A DNA stretch of 64,000 bases. Source: a virus. Location of the stretch: positions 105,232 through 169,231 of IMG/VR virus record IMGVR_UViG_3300048033_001096. One strand, written 5' to 3'. The position numbers and the translations under genes were made by a program. Each line of letters begins with the position of its first letter. The first letter of the stretch is position 1. This document shows positions 1,324 to 48,012 of this stretch, one piece after another. The notes below the pieces were generated by a model. That model had not been told where the DNA came from. It saw only the letters and a program-made list of their open reading frames with translations, and ran no database searches.

Positions 1324-2502
1324 ATGTCAGAACTATTAGAAAGTCGCTGGCAGGACACTAAAACTGCACTTGTAGAAGGTCTTAAAGGCAACAAGAAAGC
1401 TGTTATGGAAGCGACACTAGAAAATACTCGCAGGTATTTAAGTGAAACTGCAACAGCTGGTGCAACTTCTGCAGGTAACGTAGCTACACTTAACCGTGTT
1501 ATCCTACCAGTTATCAGACGTGTAATGCCAACAGTGATCGCAAACGAGTTGGTTGGTGTTCAGCCAATGACAGGCCCAGTGGGTCAAATTCACACACTAA
1601 GAGTACGTTATAGTGACGCATTCGACAGCACAAACGGTACAGACGTAGCTGCTGGCGAAGAAGCACTATCACCATTCAAAATTGCTGAAGGTTATTCAGG
1701 GGACGCTGCTACTGATCGTGCATCAGCTACAGCATCGCTTGAAGGACAAGCAGGCAATAGAATGTCAATCCAGATCTTGAAACAGACTGTAGAAGCTAAA
1801 ACACGCAAACTAAGCGCACGTTGGACCTTCGAAGCTGCTCAAGATGCACAATCGCAGCATGGTATTGACGTAGAAGCAGAAATCATGGCAGCACTTGCTC
1901 AAGAGATTACTGCTGAAATCGACCAAGAAGTTCTTGGTTCATTAGCTTCACTAGCAGGTAATGCTACTGAAACATACGATCAAGCAGCCGTATCAGGTAC
2001 TGCTACTTTCGTTGGTGATGAGCATGCTGCACTAGCAGTACAAATCAACCGCGTAAGTAACTTGATTGCACAGCGTACACGTAGAGGCGCAGGTAACTGG
2101 GCAGTGGTATCACCATTTGCACTAACTATCCTACAGTCAGCAACTACATCAGCGTTCGCTCGTACAACAGAAGGTACGTTTGAAGCACCAACTAACACTA
2201 AAATGGTTGGTACACTAAACAACGCAATGAAAGTATATGTTAACACATATGCAAACGATGCGTCACCAATTCTTATTGGTTACAAAGGTTCAAGTGAATC
2301 AGATGCAGCGGCATTCTACTGCCCATACATCCCACTAATGAGCTCAGGCGTTGTACTAGATCCAAGCACATTCGAGCCAACAGTTTCGTTCATGACACGT
2401 TATGGATATGTTGAGCTAACGAATACTGCTTCGTCTCTAGGTAACGCAGCTGATTACCTAGGTAAAGTTGCTATTACTAACGGTAACGTTAGCTTTAGCT
2501 AA
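1324..2502 (+). CDS. gp23: Major capsid protein (gp23-like)
   Basis: Motifs VIRRVMPTVIANELVGVQPMTGPVGQI, KTRKLSARWTFEAAQD, FYCPYIPL and FMTRYG; possible protease site YLSE/T. Confidence 0.97.
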   Translation: MSELLESRWQDTKTALVEGLKGNKKAVMEATLENTRRYLSETATAGATSAGNVATLNRVILPVIRRVMPTVIANELVGVQPMTGPVGQIHTLRVRYSDAFDSTNGTDVAAGEEALSPFKIAEGYSGDAATDRASATASLEGQAGNRMSIQILKQTVEAKTRKLSARWTFEAAQDAQSQHGIDVEAEIMAALAQEITAEIDQEVLGSLASLAGNATETYDQAAVSGTATFVGDEHAALAVQINRVSNLIAQRTRRGAGNWAVVSPFALTILQSATTSAFARTTEGTFEAPTNTKMVGTLNNAMKVYVNTYANDASPILIGYKGSSESDAAAFYCPYIPLMSSGVVLDPSTFEPTVSFMTRYGYVELTNTASSLGNAADYLGKVAITNGNVSFS

Positions 2503-2523
2503 GTTTTACTTAGAAAGCAAAAC

Positions 2524-2552
2524 AAAAAAGGCGGCTTATGTCGCCTTTTTTT
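2524..2552 (+). terminator. Intrinsic terminator after the capsid gene
   Basis: AAAAAAGGCGGC-TTAT-GTCGCCTTTTTTT hairpin with U-tract. Confidence 0.85.
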
Positions 2553-2574
2553 ATGACTTTTTTTAAAAAAGTGG

Positions 2575-2602
2575 TTGACTTTTATTGTAGTGATGCTATA
2601 TT
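2575..2602 (+). promoter_or_regulatory. sigma70-type (early) promoter
   Basis: TTGACT-N16-TATATT with extended TG; same GGTTGAC...GATGCTATA layout as the promoter at 50256. Confidence 0.7.
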
Positions 2603-2606
2603 AATA

Positions 2607-2813
2607 ATATAACAAGACGTTGTTATATGGGTTGGCGCTAATAATTTCCGCTCTAGAGGAGATAAGCGCACTTGGTTAGGGGTAGTGCCCGGCGTAGAGT
2701 TTGGAGACAAGCAGTACGCACACTGCGATACTAAGCAGAACTGAGGTTCTAGGCGATAGATGAAACGGTATCTGGACGCTTAGTTGGAGGTAAACCCAAG
2801 TCCTTCACCCACC
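2607..2813 (+). ncRNA. Putative structured non-coding RNA, family unknown
   Basis: About 50% GC island with no long ORF, between a promoter and a terminator. Shows many nested helices, a GAGA tetraloop and a long-range pseudoknot (see findings). Confidence 0.6.
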
Positions 2814-2821
2814 TTTATTAT

Positions 2822-2853
2822 AAAGCCCGATGCTTAACTGTGTCGGGCTTTTT
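2822..2853 (+). terminator. Intrinsic terminator of the putative ncRNA
   Basis: AAAGCCCGA...TCGGGCTTTTT. Confidence 0.8.
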
Positions 2854-2861
2854 CTTTATTT

Positions 2862-2960
2862 GATAAATACTATTGTCAGATAGTGTGCCGCAAGGCGGAC
2901 TTATGCTGTACCCACAGCGTAGCTCATAGAACGGGCATAGGACTACTTTTTATAGGAGAA
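2862..2960 (+). promoter_or_regulatory. Late promoter (GATAAATA) plus structured 5' leader
   Basis: GATAAATA at 2862-2869; hairpins GCC-GCAA-GGC and TTATGCTGT-ACCC-ACAGCGTAG; SD AGGAG. Confidence 0.65.
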
Positions 2961-2965
2961 AACAA

Positions 2966-3421
2966 ATGGGAAGACCACTCAATAAAAGATATTTCGGAAC
3001 GCCAACAGCCGGCGGCAACGAAATTAAAGTACAGTTTTGGAACGGAACTGCATCAGTAAACGGCTGGATTGTAAAGCAACTTGGAAGTAAAAAGTTTCGT
3101 TGCACAGACGGCACAGAAGTAGTAGATTGCTACCTAAGTACAAAAGCATCAGCTGACTTAGACGGTTCGCATGCTACAGTACCTAGTTTAGCTGAAATGT
3201 CTATTACAGTTAAAGACGACGGAGGCACTGCACAGCAAGTAACTAAAATTTCAGGACGCAAAGTAACACTTGAAGACGGTACAGTGATCCAGTGGAACTT
3301 CAGTGATGCTACAGATGATGGCGCAGTTGAAATGGAAGAAGCAGGCGATGATGCAGTTATGGATAACGACGATCTTGCACCAGATGCAGATGACTTCGAG
3401 TCAGACGATCCAACGGATTAA
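2966..3421 (+). CDS. Virion structural protein (possible head decoration), acidic C-tail
   Basis: Late promoter and SD; first protein gene after the capsid gene; MGRPLNKRYFG...WIVKQLGSKKF. Confidence 0.55.
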   Translation: MGRPLNKRYFGTPTAGGNEIKVQFWNGTASVNGWIVKQLGSKKFRCTDGTEVVDCYLSTKASADLDGSHATVPSLAEMSITVKDDGGTAQQVTKISGRKVTLEDGTVIQWNFSDATDDGAVEMEEAGDDAVMDNDDLAPDADDFESDDPTD

Positions 3422-37916: not shown

Positions 37917-38780
37917 ATGGCTACTTGTTTATATGTAGATGGTATTAGGTTCCCAAACGGAACTTGCCAAAGAACACAAGGCGTCACATCGGGCGGAATG
38001 TTTCAGTGCTATAACACATGTATGGTGTGTTGCGGACCACACAGATGTAGATCACACTGCGGACGTTGTGGTACTTGGACTGCACCAACATGTGCTTCAG
38101 AAATAAAATTTGAAGTATGGAGCGGCGGCGGCAGTGGCGCTGGATTTTGTTGTAGAAACTGTTTTTGCGACATTGCTAGTTGTGGTGCGTTAAGCGGTTA
38201 TTATGGCACAAAAACTATTAGACGAATTGACGGACAGTTTGTACCGGGATGTACTTATAACTTCTGTGTAGGTGCAGGCGGTAACGGGACAACAAACAAC
38301 GGATGTGGTTGTTTTACTGCATGTTGTGATGCGCCAAGGGGTTGCACATCATGGGTTAGTGGTTCAGGATTATGTTGTACGTGTATGACAGGTGGCCGAG
38401 GTGGATATAATATCTATTGTGTATGTTACTGTATTAACCAAGGTAACAGAACAGACGGCATGTGTAACAACGGACTGTGTATTGGTTGTAAATGGGATTT
38501 CGTTGACTTAGGTAACGAACCTTATTTTAATAGATATCGATCAAATGTTAACTGTGCATCACGTTCGTCTGGTATTTCTGAATCTTGGGGTATAAAAAAC
38601 GGACATATGCATTCGATGCAAACAGGTACTAAGTACTGTGGTTGTACAAATTGCTGTAGAGGATTTAGACAAATTGCTAAAGCAGGATCTAACTTAATTA
38701 AAGCGGTATGCGGCCAAGACTTAGGAAACTGTCGTGGAACACCTGGTAACCCTGGATTAGTAAGAATTACTTGGAGATAA
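37917..38780 (+). CDS. Cys-rich, Gly-rich adhesin-like protein (T-even gp38-like position)
   Basis: W.AP...IKFEVWSGGGSG, CVGAGG and G.PGLVRITW Gly-rich domain signature; 38 Cys in 287 aa; internal ATAAATA at 37890. Confidence 0.6.
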   Translation: MATCLYVDGIRFPNGTCQRTQGVTSGGMFQCYNTCMVCCGPHRCRSHCGRCGTWTAPTCASEIKFEVWSGGGSGAGFCCRNCFCDIASCGALSGYYGTKTIRRIDGQFVPGCTYNFCVGAGGNGTTNNGCGCFTACCDAPRGCTSWVSGSGLCCTCMTGGRGGYNIYCVCYCINQGNRTDGMCNNGLCIGCKWDFVDLGNEPYFNRYRSNVNCASRSSGISESWGIKNGHMHSMQTGTKYCGCTNCCRGFRQIAKAGSNLIKAVCGQDLGNCRGTPGNPGLVRITWR

Positions 38781-39599
38781 ATGATAATGAATGATAATAT
38801 TGATAACGAAGAACTAGAAAGTGAAGTAGTTGATTATCGCACTCTCGAATTAACCGACGAACATGGTACTGAATGGGTTGAGGTTAATTACACATACGAC
38901 TGTCCTATTAGTAATTACTTAGACGGTGAAGAAACTGAAACAATTGACATGGTATATAAAGGTCCTAGATATTTGTATATGTATGTTAATAAAGACGATG
39001 AAGAGTTAGATAGAAATGGAGAGTTTGAAACGGTATTGAGAGAATTTGAAGTACGTCTCGAAACTAGTGATTTTACAAATCTTCCTGGAGAAGTAGAAAT
39101 TATTAAGTTGGATGCTACAAAGGATCCGTTAGGAGCAGAAGTATTATCTGATTATCATAATAACTATATGGACATGGAAGAATGGGAAGAAACACCTAGC
39201 GAAAAAACAATCCCAGAAACTCCAATTGACGGTTATGGCTATTTTTCATACGAATATCCAATTCATCCAGACGAGTTATATGACGATAAAAAGACACGCT
39301 GGAACTTCGAAACAGGCGAACTCGATTTATACAAAAACACTAATAGTGATGTATTAGGTGAAACACGAACTTGGAAAAGTATTAAGGTAGAGAGAAATGA
39401 AAGACTAGCCGAAGCTGATGTTCCGGCAATGACTTTTGCTGTTGTAGACCCTGATAGAGCAGCAGGTATAGAAACATATAAACAGCTTCTCAGAGATTTC
39501 CCACAAAAAATGGCAGAAGCAGGAATTGATATGATTTTTGTTGATTCATGCTGGCCTGAATGTGCAGAATTAGATGACGATTACGGTCTAGACGATTAA
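38781..39599 (+). CDS. Tail fibre assembly chaperone-like protein
   Basis: C-terminal W..IK.ERN.RL...D....Y.Q.LRDFPQ motif; acidic. Confidence 0.65.
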   Translation: MIMNDNIDNEELESEVVDYRTLELTDEHGTEWVEVNYTYDCPISNYLDGEETETIDMVYKGPRYLYMYVNKDDEELDRNGEFETVLREFEVRLETSDFTNLPGEVEIIKLDATKDPLGAEVLSDYHNNYMDMEEWEETPSEKTIPETPIDGYGYFSYEYPIHPDELYDDKKTRWNFETGELDLYKNTNSDVLGETRTWKSIKVERNERLAEADVPAMTFAVVDPDRAAGIETYKQLLRDFPQKMAEAGIDMIFVDSCWPECAELDDDYGLDD

Positions 39600-39718: not shown

Positions 39719-40705
39719 ATGACAAGATCAACAGCTTTCTTTATCAACGGCGGCGCAGGCCGTGTTATAACATCAATACCAGCATTAGAACTTTACGAAA
39801 AAGAAAATCCTAACGATGATTTTATTATTGTGTGCGAGGGCGGAACTGATTTTTATAAAGGTCATCCAACTTTGCATAACCGTGCATACGATACGTGGCA
39901 TAAAGGATTATTTGAGCAATATATTAAAGACAGAAATTGTGTAAGTCCTGAGCCTTATCGTATTTGGGAATATTATAATCAAAAGTGCAGTTTAGCACAA
40001 GCATTTGATATTGAAATTAACAAACAGGGAATTAGAGAAGTACATATACCGTCTATATATCTTAACAAAGCAGAAGAATATAATGGAAAAACAGTTGTTG
40101 ATGAAGTTAAGTCTGTTACTGGATTTAATAAGGTAGTTGTAATTCAACCATTTGGTAGAGGCGTTGAAGAAACACTCATTGATCAAACATCTAGAAGTTT
40201 TAGAGCTGACGACATGTTAGATATTGCTAATCAATTAAAACAAGATTACGGTGTAATTATTATGAGTGAATTGCCATTACCTTTATATAACGAAGATGGT
40301 GATCCTACTCCTTTAGCACAGCCGCAAATACCGGATATAAGAATATGGGCCGGAGTAATTAAAGAAGCAGATCATTTCTTAGGTTGCGATAGTGTAGGGC
40401 AACATATAGCAAAGTCTCTTGGAACTACTGCTACAGTAATAACAGGTAGTACTTACCCTATTAATACATCATATGTTAACGACAAAGATGTTGACATCTT
40501 TGACGTTGGAGACGGACGACGAGTATATAGTCCAATACGTGTATCTACAGAAGAAGAGCCCGACAGGTTGAATGATAAAGCTATGAATATGAGTAAAGAA
40601 CATGTTAATGATATTGTTAAATCAATTAAAAATCGTGTAGGGAAATCAATAAAGACTACACCAAAACCACCTAACGAACAGATGAATAATGGAGGAAATC
40701 TATGA
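39719..40705 (+). CDS. GT-B glycosyltransferase, family 9 (heptosyltransferase)-like
   Basis: N-terminal GGAGRVITSIPAL (cf. GD.l...P.l), VVIQPFG and FLGCDSVGQHIAKSLG (cf. DSG..H.A.A.G). Confidence 0.7.
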   Translation: MTRSTAFFINGGAGRVITSIPALELYEKENPNDDFIIVCEGGTDFYKGHPTLHNRAYDTWHKGLFEQYIKDRNCVSPEPYRIWEYYNQKCSLAQAFDIEINKQGIREVHIPSIYLNKAEEYNGKTVVDEVKSVTGFNKVVVIQPFGRGVEETLIDQTSRSFRADDMLDIANQLKQDYGVIIMSELPLPLYNEDGDPTPLAQPQIPDIRIWAGVIKEADHFLGCDSVGQHIAKSLGTTATVITGSTYPINTSYVNDKDVDIFDVGDGRRVYSPIRVSTEEEPDRLNDKAMNMSKEHVNDIVKSIKNRVGKSIKTTPKPPNEQMNNGGNL

Positions 40706-42501
40706 GCATGTGGATAGCAGGCCTTTCTAGAGGCCACAACGCCGGAGTATGTTTACTTAAAGACGGTGAAATTGTTTTTTCTATTGAAGAAGAACGATTA
40801 ACTCGAAAAAAATACGACGGTGGACCTCTAGCGTCTATTCTAAAAATATTAGAATATACAGACAAGCTAGATTATATGGTTATTTCACACACACAAACTA
40901 TCGAACAAACAGCAGGTAAGATTGACTACACAGCTGAAGATTATATGACTGCACTTGCTCGTAAAGTTGGATTAATTGATTATCATCCTCCATGGGAACC
41001 ACATCCGCAAGTAATTGACGTATCTAAACTTCATCATAAAATGCATGCTTCGTTAGCTTTTTATAGATCAGGTTTTGAAAAGGCTATTGCAGTTATTGTC
41101 GACGGTGCAGGTACAGAGTTTGCTATTGAAGCTGATGACCAAATAAAAAGTATGTGGGAAACAGAAACTATTTACGAATGCTCATATCCTGATAATATTA
41201 AAACACTTTTTAAGACATTAGGATGTAGAGACTATATGCCATTAATGCCTATGGATGCACCGGACCAAGATATATTTGGAAATCCAACAGGTGATAAATT
41301 TCCGTGTGCATTGCATGATAGAGCTGGAATTGTAAAGTGCTATGAAGGCGTTACTGAGTATTGTGGATGGGATGCAATTGAAGCAGGTAAAACTATGGGG
41401 TTATTTCCATACGGCAACTCTAACGATGATATTCCGCCTATCTTTGATTATCAATCAGATTTTGGTGCTCCGTTAAGTAATCGTAATTTATTTGTACCAA
41501 GATACCCAAATGGATCTATTGTAAACGAACACTATTATAGTTACTTAATTGACAAAGGCGAAGAAGACGCTACACAAGAACAAAATCGACGAGATTTAGC
41601 ATATGCTGTACAAGTTGAATCTCAAGCAGCAGTTACAAAATTAATAAAAGATGCTGTTGAAAATACTGGCATTAAAAATATTGTTGTCAGTGGAGGATAT
41701 GGATTAAATTGTGTTGCAAACTATCATTATTTAAAAGAATTAGACGATGATATAAATCTTTATGTAGAACCAGTGTCAAATGACGGTGGTACAGCTATGG
41801 GTGCAGCATTATGGTTATACAGAAGTATTACTAAGGACAGTAAAATTGAAAAACAATCAGATAATGTGTATTTAGGTCCTAAATACAATATTGTCGACAG
41901 TGATATAGAACAATTAGCAACAAAGTATAATGCTACGGTTACAGATGCAACCCATCAAGATGTAATTGATTTAATTACAAGCAAAAATATTGTTACATTG
42001 TTTCAAGGAAGATCAGAAAACGGTCCTCGTGCATTAGGTAACAGAAGTATTATGTACGATCCAACTGACCCTCATGGTAAAGATTTTGTTAATATGGTTA
42101 AGCATCGTGAATATTTTCGACCATTTGCTGGTAGTATTTTAGAAGAAGATGTACACGAATGGTTTGACTTACGTGGCATGGAAAGTTCGCCTACAATGAT
42201 GTATGCTGTTAACTGTCTACCCGGCGTTGAAGAAAAGATTCCTGCTATTATTCACGTAGACGGAACCTGTCGTATTCAAACTGTAAACAGAGAACAAAAT
42301 CCACATTACTATGATATTATTAAAACTTTTAAAGAAAAAACTGGATGTCCTATTATCTTTAATACTAGTTTTAATTTAGGAGGAGACCCATTAGTCGAAA
42401 CACTAGAAGATGCATTTATAACACTTTCAAAAAGTGACATTAACTATTTATATTTGCCAGAAAATGGTAAACTAATAAGGATAACAGCAAATGAGTCTTA
42501 A
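40702..42501 (+). CDS. O-carbamoyltransferase (NodU/CmcH/TobZ family)
   Basis: GHNAG, EEERLTRKK, HHKMHA, DGAG, GKTMGL, SGGYGLNC, GPRALGNRS, REYFRPFA, HVDGTCRIQTV, NTSFN. Confidence 0.95.
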   Translation: MSMWIAGLSRGHNAGVCLLKDGEIVFSIEEERLTRKKYDGGPLASILKILEYTDKLDYMVISHTQTIEQTAGKIDYTAEDYMTALARKVGLIDYHPPWEPHPQVIDVSKLHHKMHASLAFYRSGFEKAIAVIVDGAGTEFAIEADDQIKSMWETETIYECSYPDNIKTLFKTLGCRDYMPLMPMDAPDQDIFGNPTGDKFPCALHDRAGIVKCYEGVTEYCGWDAIEAGKTMGLFPYGNSNDDIPPIFDYQSDFGAPLSNRNLFVPRYPNGSIVNEHYYSYLIDKGEEDATQEQNRRDLAYAVQVESQAAVTKLIKDAVENTGIKNIVVSGGYGLNCVANYHYLKELDDDINLYVEPVSNDGGTAMGAALWLYRSITKDSKIEKQSDNVYLGPKYNIVDSDIEQLATKYNATVTDATHQDVIDLITSKNIVTLFQGRSENGPRALGNRSIMYDPTDPHGKDFVNMVKHREYFRPFAGSILEEDVHEWFDLRGMESSPTMMYAVNCLPGVEEKIPAIIHVDGTCRIQTVNREQNPHYYDIIKTFKEKTGCPIIFNTSFNLGGDPLVETLEDAFITLSKSDINYLYLPENGKLIRITANES

Positions 42502-43773: not shown

Positions 43774-44166
43774 TTACTCTCCAGAGTTAACTAGTGTTTG
43801 ACTATCTCCAGCCGCAATTCTATAATTGTCTTCAACTGAATCAGGCGTACTAACTTCAGTAACACTGCCTTCTTTTGTTAAACAAATTAATTGATGTGGC
43901 TGCAATGGAGGATTACGCCACACTTCGCCTTCCTTTAATTCTTTTTCGTGTAATGTAGAATCTTTTGTATCAATATACGCAACTTTAAATTTTCCACTAT
44001 TTACAAACCAAGTTTCGTCTTTTTCTTTATGAAAGTGCATACTTGTCTTAGCCATTTCTCTAGTAAAGACCATAATTTTTCCACAGTATAAATCATTAGT
44101 TGCCCAAATCATTTCGTAGCCCCAGCCTTTTTTATCTACACCGCTTAGTCTAGTTGGTTGATCCAT
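43774..44166 (-). CDS. Cupin, sugar(-phosphate) isomerase-like
   Basis: KGWGYE, YCGK, SMHFHKEKDETW, P...H and EVST...DNYR. Confidence 0.75.
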   Translation of the reverse strand: MDQPTRLSGVDKKGWGYEMIWATNDLYCGKIMVFTREMAKTSMHFHKEKDETWFVNSGKFKVAYIDTKDSTLHEKELKEGEVWRNPPLQPHQLICLTKEGSVTEVSTPDSVEDNYRIAAGDSQTLVNSGE

Positions 44167-44968
44167 TTATGTACTCCTCTACTGTTGTAAATTTTAGATC
44201 TGTAACATTACTTAATTTAGTAATATCTGCGCATGTGTATTCTTGATATTGCCCTTTTAATTTATCAGGCATTGGTATATACTTTATTTTAGCATTGTGT
44301 TTTTTAGAAATTATTTCAGCAACATCTTGAAAACTTGTAGTTTTGCCTGTTCCGATATTGTAAATGTCAGATATATCAGATTTTAGCAGTTGTTTGTGTA
44401 TTTTACAAATGTCGCCTACATATATAAAATCTCGTTTGTAATTGTCACTATCTTCAAATAACTCAATAGTACTAGTATCTTCTGCTTGTTTTGTAAATTT
44501 AGTAATAGGACTTGCTTGGTTTTCTTTGTGTTCTTCAAAAGGTCCATATGCATTAAAATATCTAAAACCTTGTACAACAACATTACGATTAGATAACCCT
44601 AGCACCCATCGATCGAATAAGTACTTACTCCATGCATATGGACTTTGCGGCTGCTTAGGGTCATCTTCGCCAAATTTTTCATATGGTCCGTATACGCTTG
44701 CACTAGAGGCATATTGAAAATTTACTCCCTTTGTATTGCATTGATTAAATAACCATTTACTAAATTCATAATTTTGTAACATAATTTTATCAACATTGTT
44801 CTCAGTAGTACTAGATATTGCACCTAAATGTATAACCCAGTCATATCCTTCTACTTCTGGAAGCATTTCATCTTGCCATTCGTACCCAAACAACTCATGT
44901 TCGTCTTGTAACGCTAAAGTTAGATTTTGTCCTATAAATCCTTTGTGACCTGTAATTAATATTTTCAT
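44150..44968 (-). CDS. hldD: ADP-L-glycero-D-manno-heptose-6-epimerase
   Basis: TGHKGFIG, HLGAISSTTE, YASSASVYG, YAWSK, FRYFNAYGP, RDFIYV, YQEYTCAD. Confidence 0.9.
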   Translation of the reverse strand: MKILITGHKGFIGQNLTLALQDEHELFGYEWQDEMLPEVEGYDWVIHLGAISSTTENNVDKIMLQNYEFSKWLFNQCNTKGVNFQYASSASVYGPYEKFGEDDPKQPQSPYAWSKYLFDRWVLGLSNRNVVVQGFRYFNAYGPFEEHKENQASPITKFTKQAEDTSTIELFEDSDNYKRDFIYVGDICKIHKQLLKSDISDIYNIGTGKTTSFQDVAEIISKKHNAKIKYIPMPDKLKGQYQEYTCADITKLSNVTDLKFTTVEEYINGSTN

Positions 44969-46578: not shown

Positions 46579-48012
46579 TTAGTATGAAATCCTCCAAGAG
46601 CCATTTGGATATTCGCCTTCGTAAGAGAGTATCCAATATTCTCCAGTCCATTTATACTGTGTTTGTGTGTTTATATTTGTAACAAATTCTTCTGACAGAT
46701 TCTCACTAGCATCAAATACAATATGCCAATTTAATCCATCCCATTCGATAATATCATTTTCACTGGCAACAAAGTCTGTATTATCTGCATTTTTCCAAGC
46801 TTCAGCTCCGTTAGAATTATCAGCATTTCCAATATTTCCTAACAATAATAGTCGATTACTTGATGATGAGTCCTGTACTTGTCTTGGATCAAATCTCTGA
46901 GGATCTATAATAAAATCTACATACGTTTTATCACCGCCTGGACCGTTTATAATACTGTCAGCTGGTAATGTTTCAACATCAGGACTTTGTAATATTAATT
47001 TAGTTTCGTCTGTATTGTCAACTGAATCAATTGTAAACACAATATCTAAGTCGTTTGATCGCTGTAATCTTAATTGTGTAATTCCGGGCTCAAAAGTACT
47101 TGGATGAGCAAGAAGCCACTGTGTCCAATTAGTTTTCCCTGCAATTCCGTTTTTCATTAATCTTGCAACTCCGTCAAGTACTTCTAAATCATAATCTTGA
47201 TATGTAGTTACAACTAGTGCTGATTCGTTAGTAAGTGCTTCGTCTGGCTGAATATTTACCTTAGTAGTATCTTCATTTTCTTTAATTTTCTGTTCGACTA
47301 AACTTTGTGTGTAAGCATTTTCGTCAATATTAACTTCTAGTCCATTGTCATTAAATATTGCTGTAATAATTTTAGTTATGACTCCTAACTTTTTAACTTT
47401 TGCAGGTGGACTAATAAAAATAGGAGTAGTTAGTGAAATAGTAGCTACGTCAATTTCGGATTCGGTACCGGTTGGTATACTTCTGCTAGAAAATGTAATG
47501 TTTTCCATATTTAATACACTTAAACTTGTCCAGTCTATATAATTATCAGTAGTTTGTATTTCTAAACTTGGATTAAACAACATAAAAATTTGCTCTAATA
47601 GCTGTAGTTTTTGATCTGTGTTAGTACTCCAAATATCTACGTTAACTGTAAGTGTATAAGGTGTAGGCATTAATCGCTCAACAGTATAATTTTTTCCGCC
47701 TGCATTAAGATATTCGTCACCGTTTTCATTTAACGCACGTTCTCGTATATTCATTTTGTTAACGTAACTTGAATCAGCTAATCGTGTAGTGTCCATTTCT
47801 AAACCAGTGATATATACTGCCATCCGGGGAGCACTTGGCAACTTATTTTCCGAGTTATCTCGCATTATGCTACCAACTTGTCGAGTTAAATCACCATATG
47901 TTACTGGTACTTGTACTAACCGACCTTGTCCGTCCTTATAACTAAATTGTCCAAATAATCTAACTATTTGTGTTAAGTACCTACGTATTTGTCCGTCATA
48001 AAAATGTTGCAT
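46579..48012 (-). CDS. gp15: Tail sheath stabiliser / completion protein (gp15-like)
   Basis: FYDGQIRRY, VPVTYG, P.PY.L...V.IW..NTDQ.LQ.LEQI...F.P. Confidence 0.8.
   Translation of the reverse strand: MQHFYDGQIRRYLTQIVRLFGQFSYKDGQGRLVQVPVTYGDLTRQVGSIMRDNSENKLPSAPRMAVYITGLEMDTTRLADSSYVNKMNIRERALNENGDEYLNAGGKNYTVERLMPTPYTLTVNVDIWSTNTDQKLQLLEQIFMLFNPSLEIQTTDNYIDWTSLSVLNMENITFSSRSIPTGTESEIDVATISLTTPIFISPPAKVKKLGVITKIITAIFNDNGLEVNIDENAYTQSLVEQKIKENEDTTKVNIQPDEALTNESALVVTTYQDYDLEVLDGVARLMKNGIAGKTNWTQWLLAHPSTFEPGITQLRLQRSNDLDIVFTIDSVDNTDETKLILQSPDVETLPADSIINGPGGDKTYVDFIIDPQRFDPRQVQDSSSSNRLLLLGNIGNADNSNGAEAWKNADNTDFVASENDIIEWDGLNWHIVFDASENLSEEFVTNINTQTQYKWTGEYWILSYEGEYPNGSWRISY

Follow-up and report, generated by a model that had tools for sequence, protein, structure and literature searches.

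The heptose cassette and its cupin gene

The final 64 kb of a 169-kb viral contig from IMG/VR (IMGVR_UViG_3300048033_001096, positions 105,232 to 169,231; CheckV completeness 46%) carries a compact set of heptose-activation genes that includes a small cupin gene. We analysed this whole stretch of 64,000 nucleotides, referred to below as the window, and examined whether the cupin may stand in for the usual heptose isomerase of the pathway, GmhA. By sequence affinity the source is a marine jumbo myovirus, because its gp15-like tail-sheath completion gene (46579-48012, minus strand) is closest to those of PA5oct, Atu_ph07 and Phosso-type jumbo phages, and because the same region was found on related contigs of about 350-364 kb. 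No DNA nearly identical to the window was found among GenBank phages. The heptose cassette itself comprises the following genes:

43774-44166, minus strand: cupin (P0001, 130 amino acids), candidate sedoheptulose-7-phosphate isomerase; Cupin_2 match, motif and structural model
44150-44968, minus strand: HldD-like ADP-glycero-manno-heptose 6-epimerase (272 amino acids); TIGR02197 247.8 bits (cut-off 274.6), PRK11150 207 bits
44965-46107, minus strand: HldE-like bifunctional heptose-7-phosphate kinase (PfkB) and heptose-1-phosphate adenylyltransferase (380 amino acids); PRK11316 273 bits
43086-43772, minus strand: GmhB-like HAD-IIIA heptose-1,7-bisphosphate 7-phosphatase (228 amino acids); PRK08942 142 bits, TIGR00213 91 bits

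The minus strand reads, in order, a NUDIX hydrolase gene and the HldE-like, HldD-like, cupin and GmhB-like genes. The HldE and HldD genes overlap by 4 nt, the 3' end of the HldD gene overlaps the start of the cupin gene by 17 nt, and a gap of 1 nt separates the cupin from the GmhB gene; the HldE-HldD-cupin-GmhB run looks like one translationally coupled operon. The original prediction had described an operon of HldE, GmhB and HldD with a cupin overlapping hldD and abutting gmhB. The PRK11316, PRK08942 and TIGR02197 matches bear out this gene set, and the overlap and gap bear out the arrangement.

The HldE-like protein also matches rfaE_dom_I (180 bits), rfaE_dom_II (149 bits) and the Pfam families PfkB and CTP_transf_like, and is shorter than the PRK11316 HldE model (475 positions). 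The HldD-like protein contains the GxxGxxG, Ser and YxxxK motifs. The GmhB-like protein has the DxDG motif and an N-terminal extension of about 45 residues that is not conserved. Cysteines are absent from the residues directly preceding its conserved 'KP' motif, the place where canonical GmhB carries a zinc-binding Cys/His cluster. Family membership is clear for all three proteins, yet every score lies under the equivalog cut-off, and their specificities are those predicted from the family matches.

Kinase, adenylyltransferase, 1,7-bisphosphate phosphatase and 6-epimerase of the ADP-L-glycero-beta-D-manno-heptose pathway are thus all present. The step that precedes them, from sedoheptulose 7-phosphate to D-glycero-D-manno-heptose 7-phosphate, is usually catalysed by GmhA, an enzyme of the SIS fold. 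With all other steps encoded, the cupin is the only enzyme of the cassette that has no assigned role in the pathway.

Sequence, fold and family of the cupin

The cupin scores 28.0 bits against Pfam Cupin_2 (PF07883), above the gathering threshold of 27.2, and belongs to the cupin superfamily. Its residues H44-F-H46, K49, E51 and H91 follow the cupin arrangement: H44-x-H46-x4-E51-x6-G58 fits cupin motif 1, H91 supplies the histidine of motif 2, and K49 stands two residues before E51. H44, H46, E51 and H91 are the putative metal ligands. The AlphaFold2 model is a confident all-beta barrel (mean predicted local distance difference test score, pLDDT, 93.2) with hundreds of cupin matches. The metal-binding signature (HFH...E...H) that had been noted from the letters of the window is confirmed by the translation, the Cupin_2 score and the barrel model.

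The family is large and mostly viral. One search returned 2,918 clusters at 90% identity (about 2,900 word-index candidates) and a second 1,844 family representatives at E<=1e-3, while each of two types of query matched more than 500 IMG/VR stretches. The ESM-Atlas clusters nearest to the window cupin are 90-100% viral.

We compared 71 representatives with the Pfam and NCBIfam models at E<0.01. The WbuC cupin model (TIGR04366) was matched by 50 of them, all weakly, the cupin of type II phosphomannose isomerase (PMI; PF01050, and likewise TIGR01479) by 30, and D-lyxose isomerase (PF07385) by 29; the D-lyxose/D-mannose isomerase model NF051472 was matched by 4/71. Individual relatives come close to or pass the family thresholds: the fused relative P0130 scores 31 bits against PF01050 (gathering threshold 23.6 bits), and the P-SSM2 cupin 17.4 bits against PF07385 (cut-off 20.8). 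The models for RmlC, FdtA and cupin phosphoglucose isomerase were not among the Pfam and NCBIfam matches of the 71 representatives, which leaves room for a family that is not listed there. On sequence grounds, the nearest characterised relatives are the type II PMI cupin and the D-lyxose/D-mannose isomerases, in agreement with the isomerase cupins invoked in the original prediction. Sequence and profile searches of the PDB returned generic cupins only (oxalate decarboxylase, quercetinase, MncA), and type II PMI in the sampled bacteria consisted of the nucleotidyltransferase part, with no cupin part for a profile-profile alignment.

Three narrower assignments were tried and set aside. Against TIGR04366 the cupin reaches 23.9 bits, well under the 42-bit cut-off, which indicates a distant relation to WbuC; the WbuC member compared has Asn where the window cupin has H46. 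A CapF-type assignment would call for a cupin at the C-terminus of a two-domain protein and a partner that makes a keto sugar, and neither is present here. The active site of cysteine dioxygenase is of the 3-His kind, unlike the 3-His-1-Glu site with its K-x-E pattern, and the cupin has a Glu ligand and no match to a cysteine dioxygenase model. The comparison with the RmlC type, which has a metal-free active site, is less sharp; the cupin retains the full set of metal ligands.

The putative active site is well conserved. H-x-H, K-x-E and the second-motif His are invariant in all seven aligned copies, which comprise cassette-type, fused and Marinoscillum proteins, as are K13, W15, G16, E18, Y27, K30, E104, D113 and R116. 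The complete H44/H46/K49/E51/H91 constellation is present in 52 of the 71 representatives.

Linkage to heptose genes across viral loci

To follow the cupin across viruses, 160 IMG/VR loci were picked by their cupin, 80 near the window protein (jumbo-type) and 80 near the P-SSM2 protein (cyanophage-type), and the genes within 10 kb were counted. An HldD-like gene was found in 156-157 of the 160 loci, HldE or a separate kinase and adenylyltransferase in 146, and a phosphatase in 140. GmhA was found in none. Most of the shortfalls probably reflect contig ends.

The phosphatase is the same-strand neighbour of the cupin in 62/70 jumbo-type and 70/70 cyanophage-type loci, despite the differing type of phosphatase. 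Epimerase and cupin genes lie side by side in 67 of the 80 jumbo-type loci. Gene order varies around this association. The window has HldE-HldD-cupin-GmhB, and the 364-kb relative G004 has cupin-adenylyltransferase-kinase-epimerase. The cyanophage order is adenylyltransferase-kinase-HAD-cupin; there the epimerase usually sits on the other strand, or 6 kb off in S-SM2. Minimal cassettes in relatives consist of HldE, HldD, cupin and GmhB. The linkage of the cupin to heptose genes outlasts gene shuffling.

The reverse selection gave a similar picture. Eighty loci were chosen by the cyanophage kinase, 71 of them with at least 1.5 kb downstream, and the cupin was present in 61 of these 71. The ten loci that lack it are uninformative: they are short contigs from one sub-lineage, with 1.7-5 kb downstream, and are also without phosphatase and epimerase.

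Gene fusions were found as well. HAD and cupin are joined in four representative clusters at 50% identity (P0130, P0149, P0151 and P0238), and an HldE-type adenylyltransferase is joined to the cupin in P0208. Among the long representatives examined, no fusion of a short-chain dehydrogenase/reductase (SDR) with the cupin was seen.

Two individual loci deserve mention. In the complete jumbo-phage genome of 364,554 bp (L094, IMGVR_UViG_3300042350_002797), where the order is cupin-adenylyltransferase-kinase-epimerase, the cupin is 72% identical to that of the window and the HldE and HldD parts only 33-41%, with no phosphatase match nearby; by these identities, the cupin appears to have been better conserved than its partners, or to have been exchanged at a later date. 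The P0130 fusion (299 amino acids; ena:ERZ27245627:k141_326915, 2217-3116) lies in a T4-like phage replication module, downstream of genes for a clamp loader, a clamp-loader subunit (Phage_clamp_A) and a RegA-like protein, and no heptose genes are visible on its 6-kb contig.

The cyanophage version of the cassette

A set of cyanomyoviruses (T4-like gene clusters 303-308; P-SSM2, S-SM2, S-CAM1, P-TIM68 and others) carries the same module as the window, near tail-fibre genes. Both have a carbamoyltransferase, an adenylyltransferase, a PfkB kinase, a HAD phosphatase, the cupin (33-40% identical to that of the window) and an HldD-like epimerase. They differ in that HldE is split in the cyanophages, with the adenylyltransferase first, whereas the window has it in one protein, and in that the cyanophage phosphatase is a 110-residue EcbF/BcbF-like HAD protein and that of the window is of the GmhB type.

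Public annotation obscures the lack of GmhA. For the cyanophage cupin the labels in use are 'cysteine dioxygenase', 'nucleotidyltransferase' and 'hypothetical'. The cyanophage 'phosphoheptose isomerase' (T4-GC 306, phrog_1238) is a protein of 103-116 residues with HAD matches (TIGR01689, HAD-IIIA, HAD_PNKP) and no SIS match. The following HAD genes were tested:

P-SSM2, locus L003: 6646-6990
S-SM2, locus L002: 6661-6990 and 5020-5331
Sf-CH8, locus L001: 6652-7002

The matches of all four proteins are to HAD families, with TIGR01689 among these for three or four proteins, and the P-SSM2 protein starts with the HAD motif DxDGT. By these family matches, the cyanophage 'phosphoheptose isomerase' is the HAD phosphatase of the pathway, at least for the P-SSM2, S-SM2 and Sf-CH8 proteins. 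The 'gmhA' label has been taken as a marker of auxiliary metabolic genes in virome papers (PMC9238414, PMC7378029).

Search for GmhA

The lack of a SIS-domain GmhA in the window, on which the original prediction was built, was confirmed and extends beyond it. Neither SIS_2 (PF13580) nor GmhA (TIGR00441) gave a match at E<=1 across the 169-kb contig. Since this contig is 46% complete, the absence of GmhA from its own genome is supported by relatives rather than proven. The 364-kb relative G004, which CheckV rates as 100% complete and whose cupin is 72% identical, likewise has no PF13580 or TIGR00441 match at E<=1. The complete genomes of the cyanomyophages P-SSM2, S-SM2 and Sf-CH8, all of them with this module, gave no GmhA or SIS match at E<=1 either. 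Four further fragments, searched with PF13580 only, gave no match. A gmhA gene elsewhere in the genome together with the cupin, which the original prediction had named as contrary evidence, was therefore not found in the contig, the complete relative or the cyanomyophages.

The cassette is also present on two related contigs of jumbo phages, 335 kb and 153 kb long (PBPT01000016.1 and PBPT01000082.1), that are binned in a metagenome-assembled genome (MAG) labelled 'Candidatus Neomarinimicrobiota'. They have no GmhA match, and the sole GmhA of the MAG lies on another contig. The binning is either a hint of the host or an artefact.

Within 10 kb, GmhA was found in 0/160 of the cupin loci and 0/80 of the kinase-chosen loci. 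A GmhA tblastn search of 50,697 GenBank phage records returned 13 records, none of which is among the 35 cupin-bearing records. In a reciprocal scan with GmhA queries, GmhA mostly stood alone at the 13 viral GmhA loci, and never with the cupin (0/13). Mutual exclusivity of cupin and gmhA in phages, proposed earlier as a check, thus holds, but it carries little weight because the two genes belong to separate lineages of phages. Caulobacter phage Cr30 is one phage with GmhA, which it carries with a heptose kinase, a glycosyltransferase and an epimerase and without the cupin.

On the host side, the lipopolysaccharide of cyanobacteria has been reported to lack heptose (review, PMC4515613). In Synechococcus elongatus, included as a control, there was no TIGR00441 match even at E<=1.

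A candidate sedoheptulose-7-phosphate isomerase

We favour, with modest confidence, the reading that the cupin stands in for GmhA as a metal-dependent isomerase of sedoheptulose 7-phosphate, as the original prediction had put first. The absence of GmhA, the cassette linkage over 160 loci, the fusions and the isomerase relatives all point this way. The support is circumstantial, and none of the computational tests able to contradict this reading did so. We infer the substrate, the reaction and the metal of the cupin from the genes of the cassette, their linkage and fusions, the fold and conserved residues of the cupin, and the absence of GmhA in the phage genomes.

Sedoheptulose 7-phosphate relates to D-glycero-D-manno-heptose 7-phosphate as fructose 6-phosphate does to mannose 6-phosphate. 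In the D-lyxose isomerase of Thermofilum, H75, H77, E88 and H143 bind Mn; E88 also picks up the proton, and the cis-enediol is stabilised by K86, which stands two positions ahead of E88 (PMC8378251). By analogy, a divalent metal on H44, H46, E51 and H91 of the window cupin would bind O1 and O2 of the open-chain sugar, E51 would move a proton between C1 and C2, and K49 would steady the cis-enediolate, a scheme that follows those of D-lyxose/D-mannose isomerase and PMI. Sedoheptulose 7-phosphate would in this way become D-glycero-D-manno-heptose 7-phosphate. The HldE-like protein would then phosphorylate this product, the GmhB-like phosphatase would remove the C7 phosphate, and the HldE-like protein would follow with adenylylation. 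The HldD-like enzyme would epimerise the result to ADP-L-glycero-beta-D-manno-heptose, for consumption by an adjoining GT9-fold transferase. If the cupin carries out the GmhA step, the cassette would be a self-contained ADP-L,D-heptose pathway.

A number of observations weigh against this assignment. In the searched literature no paper ties any cupin to sedoheptulose-7-phosphate isomerisation. The window cupin itself has no match to PF01050 or PF07385 at E<0.01, nor one to NF051472; the commonest named match in its family is WbuC, for which no established function was found, and the top structural match of the window cupin is the cupin of CapF (2ZKL, residues 216-369 of 369), a keto-sugar epimerase domain. 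Some of the HAD-cupin 'fusions' could have arisen where overlapping genes were wrongly called as one. Furthermore, host GmhA could feed the cassette, because phages do not always carry whole pathways: the Cr30 region, as read, has no annotated phosphatase or adenylyltransferase, so partial pathways occur. Nor is the family uniform in function, since H44 and E51 are lost together in 19 of the 71 representatives (pattern I/T/F-H-K-K-H) and two such contexts that we read lie outside heptose cassettes. In one of these (P0126, loci L309 and L310) the cupin follows a 1,114-residue GT1/GT2/methyltransferase fusion, and in the other (P0152, loci L311 and L312) a NUDIX gene.

The cellular copies, which are rare, count on the same side. 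Among 301 Cytophagales genomes there was one strong cupin match, and three Marinoscillum species have a cupin about 59% identical, away from heptose genes and amid glycosyltransferases and radical-SAM/methyltransferase genes. In 14 Marinoscillum species genomes (G001, G003, G318 and G348-G358), a full-scoring HldD is present in 14/14, GmhA in 2-3/14 and the cupin in 3/14, with both RfaE halves in the two genomes checked for them (G001 and G003). Eight to nine of the 11 genomes that are GmhA-negative and HldD-positive also lack the cupin, as do two further GmhA-negative members of the same family. In Marinoscillum, either another supplier of the step or an HldD homologue with another role must be at work, and the pattern weakens the rule that no GmhA means that the cupin does it. 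M. pacificum, with HldD, the RfaE halves and the cupin and without GmhA, had been considered as independent support; it was dropped after the genus survey and is counted as neutral to negative. A 6.6-Mb MAG labelled Rickettsiales (PBTY01000054.1) shares its gene order near the cupin with Marinoscillum and groups with that genus in a genome search, and its label looks wrong for these reasons.

Alternative roles of the cupin

The cupin could instead be a CapF- or WbuC-like epimerase of a nucleotide-linked keto-heptose that works after ADP-heptose together with the HldD-like SDR, the host providing GmhA for step one and the product being a heptose isomer other than L-glycero-D-manno. We regard this as rather unlikely, though it has evidence of its own. 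The N-terminal part of CapF is an SDR and its cupin is C-terminal, and here the HldD-like SDR gene lies directly upstream of the cupin and overlaps it; the frequent adjacency of epimerase and cupin in jumbo-type loci agrees with this, WbuC is the commonest NCBIfam match, one true WbuC aligns over 64 columns at an hhalign probability of 86%, and the adenylyltransferase-cupin fusion is equally compatible. The SDR, however, is close to HldD (TIGR02197, 248 bits, versus 34 bits for the CapF-type reductase model), and HldD requires no partner. CapF acts on a 4-keto sugar from a dedicated dehydratase, and among the matches in the cassette there is neither a dehydratase nor a dehydrogenase to supply a keto sugar. 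In cyanophages the gene that always neighbours the cupin on its strand is that of the phosphatase, which is also the one most often fused to it, while the epimerase lies mostly on the opposite strand or kilobases off, and the long representatives offered no SDR-cupin fusion. The first enzyme would moreover be missing in hosts reported to lack heptose (PMC4515613). The original prediction had allowed that the cupin modifies the heptose further; this part fits the structural match to CapF, and we rate it below the replacement of GmhA.

A role as isomerase for another sugar, such as a small PMI or a lyxose/mannose-type enzyme serving the same glycan with heptose 7-phosphate drawn from the host, seems to us decidedly unlikely. 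The matches to the type II PMI and D-lyxose isomerase models suit it, as do the many homologues named 'mannose-6-phosphate isomerase-like' by the Joint Genome Institute (JGI) and the setting of the Marinoscillum cupin amid glycosyltransferase and radical-SAM/methyltransferase genes rather than heptose genes. Yet the cassette has no genes of the mannose pathway (phosphomannomutase, GDP-mannose pyrophosphorylase), an HldD-type 6-epimerase is useless on a hexose, and 146-157 of the 160 phage loci have heptose genes close to the cupin. It is very improbable that the cupin is no sugar enzyme at all and rides with the cassette as a dioxygenase, a small-molecule-binding protein or a regulator. This idea draws on phrog_7851 (E 8e-34), labelled cysteine dioxygenase, on the generic cupin oxygenases and decarboxylases that head the sequence and Foldseek lists, and on the nearby 2-oxoglutarate (2OG) oxygenase. 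None of the 71 representatives matches a cysteine dioxygenase family in Pfam or NCBIfam, however, and the phrog_7851 label looks like an inherited annotation; the fusions to a sugar phosphatase and a sugar-1-phosphate adenylyltransferase, with the strict cassette linkage, argue for a pathway enzyme.

Neighbouring genes and a predicted heptose consumer

Beyond the cassette, the following genes were annotated in its vicinity:

39719-40705, plus strand: GT-B glycosyltransferase of the GT9 (heptosyltransferase) fold (328 amino acids); structural model and Foldseek
40702-42501, plus strand: NodU/NolO-type carbamoyltransferase; Carbam_trans_C 194 bits, Carbam_trans_N 84 bits
42491-43117, plus strand: 2OG-Fe(II) oxygenase; 2OG-FeII_Oxy_5 48.8 bits
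46134-46604, minus strand: NUDIX hydrolase upstream of HldE; NUDIX 59.5 bits

The glycosyltransferase has only a faint Pfam GT9 match (E 0.098). In its model (pLDDT 82.6), the best-ranked PDB matches in Foldseek are the GT9 enzymes 3tov, TibC, WaaC and WaaF (E 6e-10 to 4e-7), and homologues bear the JGI name 'ADP-heptose:LPS heptosyltransferase' (LPS, lipopolysaccharide). Upstream of it lie genes for a glycine-rich protein and a homologue of a tail-fibre assembly chaperone (37917-39599). TibC is a protein heptosyltransferase. The model makes it likely that the transferase beside the cassette uses ADP-heptose, and a virion protein is a possible target of heptosylation.

The carbamoyltransferase adjoins the cassette in P-SSM2 and S-CAM1 and is present in 66 of the 160 cupin loci. 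The 2OG-Fe(II) oxygenase gene is convergent with the cassette, overlaps the GmhB-like gene at its 3' end and varies in position among relatives. PA5oct-type jumbo phages of Pseudomonas likewise have a NUDIX gene beside their gp15-like gene, and the 80 cyanophage-type cupin loci gave no NUDIX match; the gene probably belongs to the structural region and lies outside the heptose module.

Implications for marine phages

A wider proposal, which we put forward tentatively and hold to be a little short of probable, is that the mostly viral cupin family forms a second, structurally unrelated class of isomerase. Marine phages would make their own ADP-heptose from sedoheptulose 7-phosphate of the host Calvin cycle or pentose-phosphate pathway, even where the host envelope has no heptose, and a GT9/TibC-like transferase among the tail-fibre genes would then use it, possibly on virion proteins. 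Cyanophages push host metabolism toward sedoheptulose 7-phosphate. If this proposal is true, T4-like cyanophages and marine jumbo phages possess a self-sufficient ADP-heptose pathway that taps this metabolite, and Enzyme Commission (EC) number 5.3.1.28 gains a second, non-homologous family, a clear case of non-orthologous gene displacement by a cupin that is very abundant in ocean viromes. Two label corrections would follow, from 'gmhA' to HAD phosphatase in cyanophages and from 'cysteine dioxygenase' or 'nucleotidyltransferase' to candidate isomerase for the cupin. A second way of making heptose 7-phosphate is also of interest beyond phage biology, since ADP-heptose acts as an agonist of innate immunity and GmhA is a target for drugs.

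Comparison with known isomerases

GmhA (LpcA; TIGR00441, PF13580; EC 5.3.1.28) catalyses the reaction proposed here for the cupin and acts where the cupin would act, ahead of HldE, GmhB and HldD. The alpha/beta SIS fold of GmhA and the beta-barrel of the cupin are not homologous, and the cupin is no member of the SIS family. Any function that the two have in common is analogy, and would represent non-orthologous displacement if our reading is right.

In its mode of action, the cupin seems to come closest to the cupins of type II PMI and D-lyxose isomerase, and it may belong to these families. The type II PMI domain (PF01050; C-terminal in bifunctional GDP-mannose pyrophosphorylase/PMI, TIGR01479) has a cupin fold like that of the window protein, and the resemblance covers the N-terminal half, in which both the W-G motif and the metal motif lie. 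Its chemistry is that proposed for the cupin, with the corresponding hexose as the substrate, and it too is found fused to a nucleotidyltransferase. The window cupin differs in being a standalone protein of 130 residues, in that its partner adenylyltransferase has a cytidylyltransferase-like fold, and in its proposed substrate, a heptulose phosphate.

The D-lyxose/D-mannose isomerases (PF07385; 7NZO, 2Y0O, 3KMH) have the same three His and one Glu with the K-x-E pattern (PMC8378251) and act on lyxo- or manno-configured sugars. They are catabolic proteins of 170-230 residues with unphosphorylated substrates. Unlike them, the window family has the invariant basic residues K13, K30 and R116, which would suit an anionic substrate.

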